The notes under the pieces were generated by a model. That model had not been told where the DNA came from, did not search any database, and saw only the letters and a program-made list of their open reading frames with translations. The translations under genes were made by a program, and so were the position numbers. Below, piece by piece: positions 46,285 to 50,278 of a stretch of DNA of 50,278 nt (within the stretch, counting starts at the first letter, position 1; each line of letters begins with the position of its first letter). Source of the stretch: an uncultured Oscillospiraceae bacterium (lineage in GTDB: Bacteria > Bacillota > Clostridia > Oscillospirales > CAG-382); contig CAZGJQ010000002.1 of assembly GCA_964525815.1 (NCBI GenBank), positions 1 through 50,278 of the forward strand, written 5' to 3'.

Positions 46285-46319
46285 TATCATTAACAACACT
46301 ATTGCGAAAGGAAATGCTT

Positions 46320-47426
46320 ATGTTTAGAAGAGAGTTTCATGTTAAAAGGGGTACGAGTACTTTTTTATACAAAGGATTCTTCTACCTCTTTATGATGCTT
46401 TTATCAATGCTGTGCTGCTTGTTTCCCAAGCTCTACTATGTTTCGGAAGCATATATGTATTATATTGTATATATTGGGTTATCGGCCTGTATTTACTTTG
46501 CCTTTATGTTTGTTTACACTGTCTACACGGGCATAAAGCCCTTGGATGCCTTGATACTTACCGAGGAAGGTATCTATGATTTTATCAACGAGCCAAAAAA
46601 CGGCATTTTTATAGATTGGACAAACGTTTCGTCGGTAAAAATATTCGGCTCCGAAAAAATGCCGCTGCTGGGTATAGAGCTGTATGACATAGAAATAATA
46701 TCAGAAATGGTTAAAAAGGCAAAAGGCGAGGAGCTGCGCACGAATGTCGAGTCCGGCTTGCCTGCCATTATAATCAAGCAGTCGGAGATAGCTCCCAGGC
46801 TGTCTCAGATATTGCCCGCCTTTAATGATTTTATTTCCGCCACCCGACCGATTCCCATAGCAAACAGTCTTTCGGATAACGACGATATTGCCGATGACCC
46901 GTTGCTGGTGGTTCCGGAGCAAATAGAAAAACAGCACAGCGGATATATATCCCATGAAGAGGACGCCTCCCCCAGAACACTCAGGGGAGCAAAAAACGCA
47001 AACGAGGTGTTTGTTTTGCCCAACAACTCCTCAATACAATCCTCCAAAAAGGAAAGAGCAGCACGGAGTATCTACGACTCGGCTGTTGTAGTACCCGGTT
47101 TAAATAACGATGTTAACACACTGCCAAAAACAAAGCCGGAGGAAAAAAACGATTCTTCTGATTCCTCGGAGGATTTTCCCGAATTCATATTGGAAAAAGA
47201 GCCCAGTCGGGAGCAGACCTTAAGCATCAAGAATACCGAGACAAAGGAAATTCCCATAACACCTCCGACAGAGGAAAAGAGCACCGTAACCGAAAAAACG
47301 GAATTAAAAAAAGCACCCGCAGAAGCTGAGGCGGCAAAAAAAGAAGCGGAGGAAATAAAAACACTCGACGAGCTCTTATCCGGCTTTTCCGTTCCGACAG
47401 GGAAAAAGTTAAAGGATAACAAATAG
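46320..47426 (+). CDS. Membrane hypothetical protein with a disordered E/K/P/T-rich tail
   Basis: Start taken at ATG 46320; the ORF-track TTG at 46302 lies inside the AAAGGAA SD. Two TM helices, a small globular segment, then about 180 aa of low complexity. Confidence 0.7.
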   Translation: MFRREFHVKRGTSTFLYKGFFYLFMMLLSMLCCLFPKLYYVSEAYMYYIVYIGLSACIYFAFMFVYTVYTGIKPLDALILTEEGIYDFINEPKNGIFIDWTNVSSVKIFGSEKMPLLGIELYDIEIISEMVKKAKGEELRTNVESGLPAIIIKQSEIAPRLSQILPAFNDFISATRPIPIANSLSDNDDIADDPLLVVPEQIEKQHSGYISHEEDASPRTLRGAKNANEVFVLPNNSSIQSSKKERAARSIYDSAVVVPGLNNDVNTLPKTKPEEKNDSSDSSEDFPEFILEKEPSREQTLSIKNTETKEIPITPPTEEKSTVTEKTELKKAPAEAEAAKKEAEEIKTLDELLSGFSVPTGKKLKDNK

Positions 47427-47535
47427 CATTGGGGTTTTTCAATAATTCGTGTCACAACCTGCTTGTTTTTGTTGTATTTTAGTTGTTTTTGTTATATAAT
47501 ACCAGCATCACGGCACAAAGAAAGGGTATTACTAA

Positions 47536-48372
47536 ATGAAGATTAAGTTTCTCGGCACAGCTGCAGCGGAGGGCTGGCCTGCTGTATTTTGCAAATGCGA
47601 CCACTGCCAAAGAGCTAAAAAAGCAGGCGGCAGGAACATACGCACTCGTTCTCAGGCATTAATAAACAACGACCTTTTAATTGATTTTCCGTCCGATACC
47701 AATTATCATATGCTGGCTCACAGCCTTGATTTGTCGGCGGTTAAATACCTGCTTATTACTCATTCCCATCTTGACCATTTTGCACCGATTGATCTTTTTT
47801 TCCGTTCAAAGAGCTATTATGCACATAATCTGACCGAGGAAAAACTGTATATGTACTCAAACGAGGCGGTGCTTGACAGATATAATAAAGCATTAGCCGA
47901 TTATAACGAGGAGCCGACCGACCAGAGCATTATCGCCTCCTTTTTACCCCTTTATACTCCCACAAAGCTTGACAGGTACACCGTAACAGCGCTGAGAGCA
48001 AACCACGCTCCCGAGCAAACCGCATATGTCTATCTGATTCAAGACAAAGACAGCACTCTTCTATATCTTCACGATACCGGCAGGCTATATGACGAGGTTT
48101 ATGACTACCTGACAGACAACAGGATAAAAGCAGATCTCATCACCTTTGACTGTACATACGGCTTGATAAAAAGCGGAGGCGGTCACTTGGGAATAGATTC
48201 CTGTCAGCCGGAGAGAGAACGCTTATTGGAGCACAAAATTGCGGGTAAGGATACCCAAATGATAGTTAACCATTTTTCACACAACGGAGGGGCTATTTAT
48301 GACGAGATGGTTCCTGTTGCGGAAGAGCTGGGCTTCCAGACCTCCTTTGACGGTATGGAAGTGGAGTTTTAA
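47536..48372 (+). CDS. MBL-fold metallo-hydrolase (PhnP-like phosphodiesterase type)
   Basis: 278 aa with an HSHLDH (HxHxDH) motif and an N-terminal Cys cluster CKCDHC, as in PhnP-type enzymes. Confidence 0.88.
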   Translation: MKIKFLGTAAAEGWPAVFCKCDHCQRAKKAGGRNIRTRSQALINNDLLIDFPSDTNYHMLAHSLDLSAVKYLLITHSHLDHFAPIDLFFRSKSYYAHNLTEEKLYMYSNEAVLDRYNKALADYNEEPTDQSIIASFLPLYTPTKLDRYTVTALRANHAPEQTAYVYLIQDKDSTLLYLHDTGRLYDEVYDYLTDNRIKADLITFDCTYGLIKSGGGHLGIDSCQPERERLLEHKIAGKDTQMIVNHFSHNGGAIYDEMVPVAEELGFQTSFDGMEVEF

Positions 48373-48380
48373 TCAAAAAT

Positions 48381-48419
48381 AAAAATCAGCTGCGGCTTCT
48401 TTTCCGCAGCTGATTTTTT
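48381..48419. terminator. Bidirectional rho-independent terminator
   Basis: AAAAATCAGCTGCGG (48381-48395) pairs with CCGCAGCTGATTTTT (48404-48418). An 11-bp GC-containing core, 8-nt loop, A-run on one side and T-run on the other. Lies between convergent genes. Confidence 0.88.
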
Positions 48420-48426
48420 GCGTTTT

Positions 48427-49470
48427 TTATGGTAATATCTCGGCAATGCTCCTGCACTCGGAGAGTGTTCCGTCCGCCTTTATGTAATATACAACGGTTT
48501 CAAAATTCTGTGCTCCGATTGCCTTGTAGAATACAACCGAACCCGCCAGTGACGGCAGCTTCTGTGTTATGTAGTTATTGCTCTGATTATACGCCAATCT
48601 TGAGTCGTTTGTAATAATAATCGCTCCCGGAAGAAAGGCTCCGTAATGCGTTACGAATGTGTCCCAGTTTGCGGCGTTTAGGATTGTGTGCTTATCGGAT
48701 ATATAGTTACTAAACCCTATAACATTATAGCCGTTAGGGTCATTTATATCCAGCCTTGTGTTGCTTGGCAGCGGGCCGGCTTCAAATAGCTTCTCAAGAT
48801 AACCGTTCCAATATGCCGGGGTGTAGTTGGTTCCGTTTATCCTCCACTCAAAGCTTGTGCTCAAAAAATCCGCATATGTAACAGCTGAGCCTGCTATGCT
48901 CTCCTTAAGAGCCCTGAACACCTCGTCCTCCTCTTCGGATTGCACTCCGGTAACCGAAACATTGAACATGGTTTCAAAGGCGTTTCCCGCATAATCAATG
49001 TCATTGTCGGTTGATTCCCAGTATATCCTCAGCTCATACACCCTTGACTGACCTGCCGCTTCCAGCGGAAATCTTCCGTTTACGGTAAGCGTACCCACTC
49101 CGTCTGTCAAGCCACCTGCACTGACTATGTTATTATCTGTATCAAAAACAGCGGCTGTAAGCGGCCCTATTGCAGATTTTCCGTCTGCAGCCTCAGCCGT
49201 TAAGGTTACGGTATAATCTATCGGCACTTCGGAAACAAACTCACCCTCGTAATTCTTAAGACCAAAGCTCCAGATGACCGTCTCGGTGGGAGCTATTTTT
49301 ACACCGAACTCAAAGGTGTCCGTGCCGTACTCGGTAAGAATAAACTCCTTGGCGACTAAGCTACCCTCCGCAAGATCATCCAGTGTTACGGTATACATAG
49401 CCATTGTACCTGCAATAACGGATGTGATTATCGTAAGAACCAGTACGAATAAAAAAACAACTCTCTTCAT
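48427..49470 (-). CDS. Secreted protein of unknown function with a SipW-type (TasA/camelysin-like) signal peptide pattern
   Basis: 347 aa. The N-terminus MKRVVFLFVLVLTIITSVIAGTMAMYT resembles the GT-x-A-x-[FY]-T motif of SipW-dependent substrates. Monocistronic, between the riboswitch and the strong terminator. Confidence 0.8.
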   Translation of the reverse strand: MKRVVFLFVLVLTIITSVIAGTMAMYTVTLDDLAEGSLVAKEFILTEYGTDTFEFGVKIAPTETVIWSFGLKNYEGEFVSEVPIDYTVTLTAEAADGKSAIGPLTAAVFDTDNNIVSAGGLTDGVGTLTVNGRFPLEAAGQSRVYELRIYWESTDNDIDYAGNAFETMFNVSVTGVQSEEEDEVFRALKESIAGSAVTYADFLSTSFEWRINGTNYTPAYWNGYLEKLFEAGPLPSNTRLDINDPNGYNVIGFSNYISDKHTILNAANWDTFVTHYGAFLPGAIIITNDSRLAYNQSNNYITQKLPSLAGSVVFYKAIGAQNFETVVYYIKADGTLSECRSIAEILP

Positions 49471-49497
49471 CCAACTACCCCTTGTTTATTATTTATA

Positions 49498-49528
49498 AAG
49501 AAAAAACCGCTACATATCCTGTAGCGGT
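49498..49528 (-). terminator. Intrinsic terminator forming the riboswitch expression platform
   Basis: On the minus strand: ACCGCUACA-GGAUA-UGUAGCGGU (9-bp stem) followed by UUUUUU. Its 5' arm overlaps the 3' end of the aptamer (GGUUACCGCUAC). Confidence 0.8.
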
Positions 49529-49605
49529 AACCGGCTGTCATACCAAAAAAGGCTTAGACCCTATGGCTTTGCGTGATAGACTTTCGCCTATTTTGCTTTT
49601 CACAT
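49524..49605 (-). promoter_or_regulatory. c-di-GMP-I (GEMM-I) riboswitch aptamer
   Basis: The minus-strand RNA reads GUGAAAAGCAAAAUAGGCGAAAGUCUAUCACGCAAAGCCAUAGGGUCUAAGCCUUUUUUGGUAUGACAGCCGGUUACCGC. It contains the GEMM-I hallmarks GCAAA, a GAAA-capped hairpin, ACGCAAAGCC, GGGUCUAA and AUGACAGCCGGUUACCG. Confidence 0.78.
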
Positions 49606-49617
49606 TAATTTATTCTT

Positions 49618-49646
49618 ATCATATCACTTTTGATATAGTTTGTCAA
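49618..49646 (-). promoter_or_regulatory. Promoter TTGACA-17-TATGAT driving the riboswitch leader
   Basis: On the minus strand: TTGACA (49646-49641), 17 nt, TATGAT (49623-49618). About 140-nt leader to ATG 49470. Confidence 0.6.
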
Positions 49647-49682
49647 TATTTATTTTTGCATTCCGTAGTCTTGTCCTTTATT

Positions 49683-50278
49683 CTATAATATCATTGCAAC
49701 TCTTGCGCCTTCGTAAATAGCTTCTACCGCGGACCGGGCCTCCTTTGCGTCACCTATGATATAAACCTCCTCGGCTAATTCCTTTTCCCTGTCCTTGAAA
49801 GGATTATAAGCGTTTGCACCTAAAGCAAGGATAATGGAATCGTAGCCGCTAAGTGTCGTTTGTTTTCCGTTCCGCTCGCATATGACGCCGTCCTCGGTAA
49901 ACTCTACAATCTTTGTATTGGTCAGAATATCGACACCTTCTTCCTTAAAACGTCGGTATAAAGTCTCTCTGACAGTCATAAACAGGTCAAGTCCAATATG
50001 CTCGGTCATCTCCGCCACAGTTACCTTATCACAATAATCGGTGCAGTACTCGGCGGTTTCAACGCCCACAACACCGCCTCCCACCACAAGCACCTTCCCC
50101 GATACCTGCTGCCCGAGCAGCACATCGTTTGCCATCTTGATTCTCGGTCCGTCAATTCCCGGAATTCTTGGTCTCTTTTGAAGAGCTCCGGTTGCAATTA
50201 TTAACACATCCGGACTGATTTTCTTTACAAAATCAGCGTCAACCTCCTTTTCAAAGACCATTTCGACTCCGTATTTAT
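49683..50278 (-). CDS. FAD/NAD(P)-binding oxidoreductase, C-terminal part (5' end off window)
   Basis: Rossmann motif KVLVVGGGVVGVETAEY and a terminal YIIGDA motif, like the C-terminal pyridine-nucleotide-disulfide domain of NADH:flavin/2,4-dienoyl-CoA reductase-type enzymes. The reading frame stays open to the window edge. Confidence 0.8.
   Translation of the reverse strand, partial: KYGVEMVFEKEVDADFVKKISPDVLIIATGALQKRPRIPGIDGPRIKMANDVLLGQQVSGKVLVVGGGVVGVETAEYCTDYCDKVTVAEMTEHIGLDLFMTVRETLYRRFKEEGVDILTNTKIVEFTEDGVICERNGKQTTLSGYDSIILALGANAYNPFKDREKELAEEVYIIGDAKEARSAVEAIYEGARVAMIL

Follow-up and report, generated by a model that had tools for sequence, protein, structure and literature searches.

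What signal is read by the RNA leader in front of a secreted-protein gene of an uncultured Oscillospiraceae bacterium, and does that signal switch the gene on or off? The question arises on contig CAZGJQ010000002.1 (assembly GCA_964525815.1), of which we analyzed a stretch of 50,278 nucleotides (nt), called the window below. An initial annotation, made from the letters alone, had placed a c-di-GMP-I (GEMM-I) riboswitch with an intrinsic terminator at 49498-49646, ahead of a single gene on the minus strand, and the leader that it quoted is exactly the minus strand from 49646 to 49460. By score, fold, and covariation, this leader is a class I cyclic di-GMP (c-di-GMP) riboswitch. We propose, with a probability of about 0.72, that it works as a c-di-GMP-responsive transcriptional ON riboswitch controlling the secreted-protein gene. 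Features described below lie on the minus strand unless stated otherwise.

The initial annotation had suggested a covariance-model search with Rfam RF01051 and the c-di-GMP-II model as a control. The whole window was scanned by cmscan against 4227 Rfam families. RF01051 (c-di-GMP-I) matched at 49523-49607 (-) with 70.0 bits, compared to a gathering score of 35 (E = 8.8e-12), and the match was untruncated, spanning model positions 1 to 87 of 87. Only one other match in the window, to an S10-Clostridia leader, exceeded its gathering score. In a permissive rescan of 49400-49720 (E <= 10), in which lower-scoring matches from clan CL00126 were suppressed, RF01051 was recovered at E = 5.6e-14. The other matches were to three small RNA models at 12 to 21 bits, well under their thresholds. 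The control was negative: RF01786 gave no match in 49400-49720 even at E <= 10, which rules out a c-di-GMP-II identity. The c-di-GMP-I-GGC and -UAU variants of clan CL00126 were also rejected, as RF01051 was the best clan member and the nucleotides equivalent to A47 and C92 of the Vc2 aptamer are canonical.

The RNA has the two elements that define the GEMM-I fold, a GNRA-capped P2 and a receptor in P3. In the Rfam alignment, the P2 hairpin (49591-49576) carries a GAAA tetraloop at 49585-49582 on a 6-bp stem, and G49596-C49595 pair with G49572-C49571. P3 bears CUAAG and UAUG, which we take, by comparison with the known 11-nt motif, to be the two halves of a tetraloop-receptor-like motif. P3 differs from the Rfam consensus by one U-U mismatch and one deletion. 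Both P2 and P3 form in the minimum free energy (MFE) structure of the leader predicted by RNAfold. The A47 equivalent is A49570, the A directly 3' of the CGC at the end of P2 (CGCAAA in the alignment). Judging from what is known of Vc2, and from A41 forming J2/3 in Gs1761, it is presumably the base that intercalates between the ligand bases.

The remaining two ligand-contact positions were located in the same way. The 3' junction ACCGCU (49528-49523) aligns to model positions 82 to 87, and its first C, C49527, is the equivalent of C92, the Watson-Crick partner of ligand G-beta (PMC6140456); it falls within the 5' arm of the terminator. Model position 11, which has the consensus G and lies directly 5' of the G-C pair opening P2, aligns to A49597, the last nucleotide of J1/2. 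In the Gs1761 structure, P1 is accompanied by J1/2 (A9-A14), P2 from C15, J2/3 (A41), and J1/3 (G74-C75) (PMC6274999), and A14 of Gs1761 corresponds to G20 of Vc2 (PMC6140456). A49597 is thus the Vc2 G20 and Gs1761 A14 equivalent. In the complex, G20 contacts one ligand base at its Hoogsteen edge, and the other base is paired with C92 (PMC6140456). Of the canonical triad G20/A47/C92, the A47 and C92 equivalents are present and the G20 equivalent is A. The contacts therefore read A/A/C, typical of GEMM-Ib, the type with A at the G20 equivalent, instead of the canonical G/A/C. A candidate P1 5' strand, GUG at 49601-49603, was read from the sequence and would pair with C49526, G49525, and C49524. 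This GUG/CGC register also pairs in the related loci L003, L031, L051, and L056. A single P1 register for all relatives failed, with 52% of alignment cells paired, and the P1 assignment is tentative.

The element recurs in front of related genes. A search of 5.8 billion proteins returned only 6 detectable homologues of the 347-amino-acid (aa) protein encoded downstream. Flanks were usable at three of the homologue loci, and two of these (L001 and L003) have RF01051 directly upstream, scoring 69 and 62 bits, both with A at the position equivalent to G20 (A20). Pattern-based scans for the conserved N-terminal domain yielded 56 loci in species-representative genomes and 39 more in metagenomes. 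Where named, the hosts of the former are Clostridia or other Bacillota, such as Desulfosporosinus, Christensenellaceae, Oscillospiraceae, Sporobacter, and Anaerobacterium. Rfam scans and a family-specific covariance model, R1, detected 18 aptamers, distributed over the window and 16 related loci. The aptamer at L041 precedes a different gene and was excluded, leaving 17 family-associated aptamers. At 15 of the 17 aptamer loci (the 16 related loci and the window), the next open reading frame (ORF) shortly downstream carries an AGTLxxYT signal peptide (...AGTLxxYT...ID.LA.G), with the motif 101 to 186 nt downstream of the aptamer. The association is frequent, not universal. The homologous operon at L002 has no GEMM-I aptamer at gathering score or by R1, and most Desulfosporosinus loci lack one as well.

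Conservation of the fold was examined in an alignment of 12 aptamers. Within the Rfam helices, 89.7% of the cells were paired and 14 pairs had changed on both sides. None of 500 column shuffles reached the observed values, and sliding the 3' partners by 1 to 3 columns left 28 to 42% of cells paired. Compensatory pairs specific to the window were found too: it has U-A where the 11 others have C-G, and C-G where the 11 others have U-A. The aptamer structure is conserved and selected, and the match did not arise by chance. Among the relatives, the aptamers at L032 (1171-1256) and L041 (754-838) score best with the c-di-GMP-I-GGC model RF03167, yet both read CGCAAA with A as the A47 equivalent. 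RF03167 probably wins there only by including P1, and both aptamers look like canonical GEMM-I.

These results bear on whether the aptamer might be a decaying, nonregulatory remnant, with the gene simply driven by its promoter through a leaky leader terminator. One canonical ligand-contact nucleotide is altered, P1 is weak, and P3 has its mismatch and deletion relative to the Rfam consensus, all of which could be taken as decay. Yet RF01051 matches at double its gathering score; the GAAA loop, both receptor-like segments, and the equivalents of A47 and C92 are all preserved; the helices are upheld by lineage-specific compensatory pairs; and the P3 deletion is present in all 12 related aptamers. 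The order of promoter, aptamer, overlapping terminator, and gene is also conserved across distant Clostridia. We consider such a remnant very improbable.

The regulatory logic of the leader can be read from how its parts are arranged. As initially annotated, a TTGACA-17-TATGAT promoter precedes the aptamer at 49618-49646 (-). A motif scan placed the -35 element TTGACA at 49646-49641 and the -10 element TATGAT at 49623-49618, separated by a 17-nt spacer with a TG extension. This sigma-70-type promoter scored 11 out of 12 and was the top promoter-like site in the 3.8 kb scanned (46500-50278). Transcription is predicted to start near 49611. A terminator scan identified an intrinsic terminator at 49501-49528 (-), composed of the 5' arm ACCGCUACA (49528-49520), the loop GGAUA, the 3' arm UGUAGCGGU (49514-49506), and a U-run extending to 49501. 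Its stem (49528-49506) has 9 pairs, 5 of them G-C, and a 5-nt loop, and is followed by TTTTTC. RNAfold assigned the hairpin -14.5 kcal/mol. The gene has the Shine-Dalgarno sequence AAGGGG (49478-49483), located 7 nt before its ATG.

The sharing of the aptamer 3' strand with the 5' arm of this terminator, already noted in the initial annotation, holds from 49528 onward. The first nucleotide of the terminator stem, 49528, is the J1/3 A, and the 5' arm contains the C92 equivalent and the whole 3' strand of the candidate P1. The MFE of the full leader was -31.8 kcal/mol, and P2, P3, and the terminator coexist in this structure, so that, of the aptamer elements, P1 and the junction alone compete with it. 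No separate anti-terminator was apparent in the leader sequence or in the predicted folds. Since the terminator 5' arm falls within the aptamer, covering J1/3 and the 3' strand of the candidate P1, the ligand-bound aptamer should exclude the terminator and vice versa, which predicts an ON switch. The initial annotation had considered the direction undecidable by eye. The overlap now narrows the choice in favor of ON, at the level of a prediction. The same overlap occurs in related leaders, where the terminator and its U-run begin at or before the NCC(G/A) junction motif in 11 of 13 cases.

We therefore envisage a switch in which ligand binding leads to read-through, a direction that we hold to be quite likely given this architecture and the precedents described below. 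RNA synthesis would begin near 49611 from the strong sigma-70-type promoter. Without ligand, ACCGCUACA (49528-49520) would pair with UGUAGCGGU to form the 9-bp terminator followed by U6, and most transcripts would stop at approximately 110 nt. When ligand occupies the three-way junction, the ACCGCUACA segment would be retained in the aptamer: C49527 would pair with one ligand guanine, and CGC (49526-49524) with GUG (49603-49601) would form a short P1. The terminator would then be unable to nucleate, and RNA polymerase would continue into the gene. The pbuE adenine riboswitch follows a like logic, as its ligand locks a shared strand in the aptamer, which blocks the terminator and allows transcription to continue. 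The terminator 3' arm would emerge only about 6 to 14 nt after the aptamer is complete. With a decision window put at only about 10 to 20 nt, control is presumably kinetic. The product would be a secreted protein, plausibly an extracellular matrix or surface component made at high c-di-GMP. As P1 is very short and its register is not conserved, the predicted direction rests on the logic of the overlap and on analogy.

The closest functional analogy is offered by Bc2 of Bacillus thuringiensis, located upstream of the collagen adhesion protein gene cap. Bc2 likewise consists of a class I aptamer with an intrinsic terminator directly after it, just before the ORF (PMC4933901). It was shown experimentally to be an ON switch, with c-di-GMP raising read-through in vitro and in vivo and a terminated product of approximately 120 nt, and it controls a surface/secreted protein tied to aggregation and biofilm formation (PMC4933901). 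The two differ in host, Bacillus versus an anaerobic clostridial lineage, and in the family of the regulated protein, and for the window the ON direction is a prediction. With its class I aptamer, adjacent terminator, predicted ON direction, and surface protein, the window RNA would work most like Bc2. Terminator-based ON control is further illustrated by the Geobacter GEMM-Ib switches, in which a weakened terminator removes the ligand requirement (PMC6456294).

The regulated gene (48427-49470, -) was described initially as a monocistronic gene for a secreted protein, and this description stands. The ORF encodes 347 aa with a signal peptide and a predicted beta-sandwich domain (approximately residues 40 to 177). 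It is closed by a bidirectional terminator of 15 pairs, found on both strands at 48381-48418, beyond which a metallo-beta-lactamase (MBL)-fold gene converges at 47536-48372 (+); because of this 15-bp terminator and the convergent gene, we read the regulated gene as monocistronic. The first ~177 residues, which include the signal peptide with SVIAGTMAMYT, are 44 to 52% identical to many clostridial proteins of 176 to 180 aa. The C-terminal domain (approximately residues 178 to 347; 48427-48940, -) is shared only with P0002, a homologue from a Christensenellaceae metagenome-assembled genome (MAG), which is the closest full-length relative (41% identity). Some family members bear a C-terminal CBM2 domain instead.

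Operons of relatives suggest a context for this family. L002 (4001-8957) and L003 (4001-9035) share a conserved operon in which the ~176-aa secreted domain is present in 2 to 4 paralogues, the first of them with a CBM2-like C-terminal fusion. These operons encode an archaeal-type signal peptidase I (TIGR02228, 81 to 84 bits versus a cutoff of 51.85) whose best named match is SipW. Two further products are a degenerate protein resembling ABC ATPases and a polytopic membrane protein of ~470 aa whose C terminus again resembles a signal peptidase. In having a SipW-type peptidase and several short paralogues, they resemble the systems of SipW-dependent matrix proteins such as TasA of Bacillus subtilis and BsaA of Clostridium perfringens. 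Secretion of BsaA requires SipW, and the protein forms extracellular polymers (PMC7395162). The relatives of the window gene have, for their part, a signal peptide ending in the conserved AGTLxxYT motif, and no sipW homologue was found within the window. No sequence similarity or fold link to TasA/Peptidase_M73 was detectable for the family. No Pfam or NCBIfam model matched the ~176-aa secreted domain, and membership in the TasA/camelysin (Peptidase_M73) family was rejected for want of a match in either database. An hhalign comparison of the family alignment with an approximate TasA sequence gave a nonsignificant probability of 1.7%. A profile search of PDB sequences returned only CBM2 matches, through the C termini of other members, and TasA was absent from the top 50 Foldseek matches in the PDB. 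From its context, we infer that the 347-aa protein would be made at high c-di-GMP and belong to the extracellular matrix or the cell surface; that it might form polymers is pure speculation.

Several points weigh against reading the locus as a c-di-GMP-responsive ON switch for a secreted protein. All C. difficile class I c-di-GMP riboswitches are described as OFF switches (PMC11477304). P1 has 3 bp in its best register, and one fixed register pairs just the 52% of cells across relatives given above. A20 is a hallmark of the cGAMP-selective GEMM-Ib riboswitches of Geobacter, where cGAMP stands for 3',3'-cyclic GMP-AMP, and the A20G exchange flips selectivity (PMC6456294). When the ORFs of 100 aa or more were searched for GG[DE]EF, none had the motif, and no diguanylate cyclase is visible in the 50-kb window, in agreement with the initial annotation, which had seen no GGDEF gene there. 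On the protein side, the 347-aa product has no recognizable domain and no Pfam or NCBIfam match. Its AlphaFold model, built from a 6-sequence alignment, has a mean predicted local distance difference test (pLDDT) score of 58.6. The N-terminal beta-sandwich is modeled with only moderate confidence, at approximately 70 to 86, and the C-terminal half, which has no family match, with low confidence, at approximately 31 to 65. Foldseek against the PDB gave generic jelly-roll, carbohydrate-binding module (CBM), and lectin beta-sandwiches at a query template modeling (TM) score of at most 0.25, and for this reason no function was drawn from the fold.

One alternative is a class I switch of the opposite sign, in which ligand binding causes termination. 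Cd1 and the other Clostridioides difficile class I switches resemble the window element in belonging to RF01051, in their clostridial host, and in controlling surface or motility genes by termination, and they are reported as transcriptional OFF switches (PMC11477304), whereas the architecture in the window predicts ON. A strong terminator (-14.5 kcal/mol) facing a 3-bp P1 might also seem to suit termination. In the window, however, the terminator 5' arm is formed by J1/3 and the P1 3' strand of the aptamer itself, which makes the bound aptamer and the terminator incompatible. No separate anti-terminator that the aptamer could sequester is seen in the sequence or the predicted folds, and 11 of 13 relatives keep the overlap. 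Turning on a secreted or matrix-type protein when c-di-GMP is high would moreover fit the usual biology, with Bc2 as a precedent (PMC4933901). We consider an OFF switch quite unlikely and retain the ON switch as the preferred direction.

The A at position 20 raises the question of the ligand, which had been left as undecidable by eye. Now that the G20 equivalent has been read as A, the cGAMP question is a real one, and comparative and published data favor c-di-GMP. A20 does not by itself confer selectivity: the G20A mutant of Vc2 is bispecific, with affinities of 53 nM for c-di-GMP and 120 nM for cGAMP (PMC6140456). The natural A20 aptamer Cbe 1-2 of Clostridium beijerinckii, the only tested clostridial one, binds c-di-GMP at 30 nM and cGAMP at 463 nM via a stably protonated adenine, an approximately 15-fold preference for c-di-GMP (PMC6140456). 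Cbe 1-2 is a clostridial class I aptamer and, in the ligand pocket, the nearest counterpart of the window aptamer, to which it is likened on the A20 feature alone; by that analogy, it offers the best available proxy for the ligand behavior expected in the window.

Among the 17 family-associated aptamers, position 20 is A in 4 (the window, L001, L003, and the first aptamer of L070) and G in 13. The A20 aptamers form no clade. For the three that were compared, the nearest aptamers all have G20: L051 for the window (75% identity), L031 for L003 (77%), and L056/L028 for L001 (73%). With these G20 partners, the A20 aptamers share both the terminator design and the type of gene downstream. A repeated exchange of A and G in an otherwise constant context is the pattern to be expected if both versions respond to one signal, which favors c-di-GMP. 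We therefore infer that c-di-GMP is likely the physiological ligand, and that A49597 probably also permits binding of 3',3'-cGAMP in vitro.

The alternative is a GEMM-Ib riboswitch that responds physiologically to 3',3'-cGAMP, or one for which cGAMP and c-di-GMP are two real inputs; such a switch would couple production of the secreted protein to a cGAMP synthase (a Hypr GGDEF protein or a CD-NTase). Recognition of cGAMP requires A at position 20. In Geobacter Gmet_0970, the A20G exchange turns a cGAMP switch into a c-di-GMP switch (PMC6456294). Position 20 is A in the window, and A20 is kept in four independent leaders of the same gene family. Two signals could also be reflected in the tandem of an A20 and a G20 aptamer before one gene at L070, and in the A20 and G20 aptamers that precede paralogues in one Christensenellaceae MAG. 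Set against these points are the bispecificity of Vc2 G20A, the c-di-GMP preference of Cbe 1-2, and the proximity of each compared A20 aptamer to a G20 aptamer on the same platform with the same kind of gene, and no cGAMP synthase was seen within the 50-kb window. The Geobacter GEMM-Ib riboswitches (Gs1761/pgcA and Gmet_0970) have the same fold as the window RNA, likewise end J1/2 with A, and use a terminator in an ON design, as predicted for the window (PMC6140456, PMC6274999, PMC6456294), but they are up to ~1200-fold selective for cGAMP and coupled to the Hypr GGDEF enzyme GacA. They control cytochromes, pili, and exoelectrogenesis in Deltaproteobacteria, and nothing comparable was seen in the window, whose gene family is also found under G20 aptamers. 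A physiological role for cGAMP at this locus is accordingly judged unlikely, and c-di-GMP remains our preferred ligand.

Two arrangements of A20 and G20 aptamers deserve description in their own right. At L070 (metagenome contig Ga0334900_1019575, 906-1310), two tandem GEMM-I aptamers lie ahead of a single family gene. The first (958-1044) has A20 and its own overlapping terminator, and the second (1094-1180) has G20; this could be a two-input or sharpened-response arrangement. On the Christensenellaceae MAG chromosome OY762275.1, the gene most similar to the window gene over its full length is preceded by an A20 aptamer (L005), and a paralogue approximately 420 kb away by a G20 aptamer (L039, 1014-1100).

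The surroundings of the leader complete the description of the locus. Upstream on the same strand lies the C-terminal part of a pyridine nucleotide-disulfide oxidoreductase gene, which ends at 49683. A scan of 49647-49685 (-), between this gene and the riboswitch promoter, found no terminator, and read-through transcripts could therefore also enter the leader. A 374-aa ORF at 46302-47426 (+) matches the NCBIfam STM3941 family at its N terminus (50 bits versus a cutoff of 40) and has a long, low-complexity C-terminal tail rich in Glu, Lys, and Ser. The S10-Clostridia ribosomal leader mentioned above (RF03136, 15628-15704, -; 40.4 bits versus a gathering score of 35.1) is unrelated to the riboswitch; together with the Christensenellaceae homologue, it assigns the host to Clostridia. 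Other structured RNAs, also unrelated, were observed in the flanks of relatives: an azaaromatic (yjdF) riboswitch (L033:2614-2714, -), a drum RNA (L059:2394-2500, -), a glmS ribozyme (L057:2358-2505, -), and a T-box (L048:1342-1615, -).

The riboswitch class itself is well known, and departures at position 20 are already documented inside RF01051. Comparatively new are the recurrent coupling of a predicted GEMM-I ON switch to an unannotated, SipW-associated family and the natural series of A and G at position 20. The class I switches found here are predicted to turn expression on, the opposite of what is described for C. difficile. Because A and G alternate at a specificity-determining position among closely related leaders within the same gene context, the series is suited to testing whether A20 adjusts affinity, widens specificity, or has no effect. 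A20 occurs in the window, in a Christensenellaceae MAG, and in two metagenomic loci, once in tandem with a G20 aptamer. There is a slim chance that it is the sign of a group of clostridial GEMM-I riboswitches whose physiological input is 3',3'-cGAMP, alone or integrated with c-di-GMP. If so, cGAMP signaling through riboswitches would extend from Geobacter to Clostridia of the gut and of anaerobic digesters and would acquire a link to secreted matrix proteins of a new SipW-type family. For the AGTLxxYT family, our preferred reading of a c-di-GMP-responsive ON switch amounts to a regulon prediction, namely, that its members are c-di-GMP-induced extracellular components, which would give this family a testable functional context.

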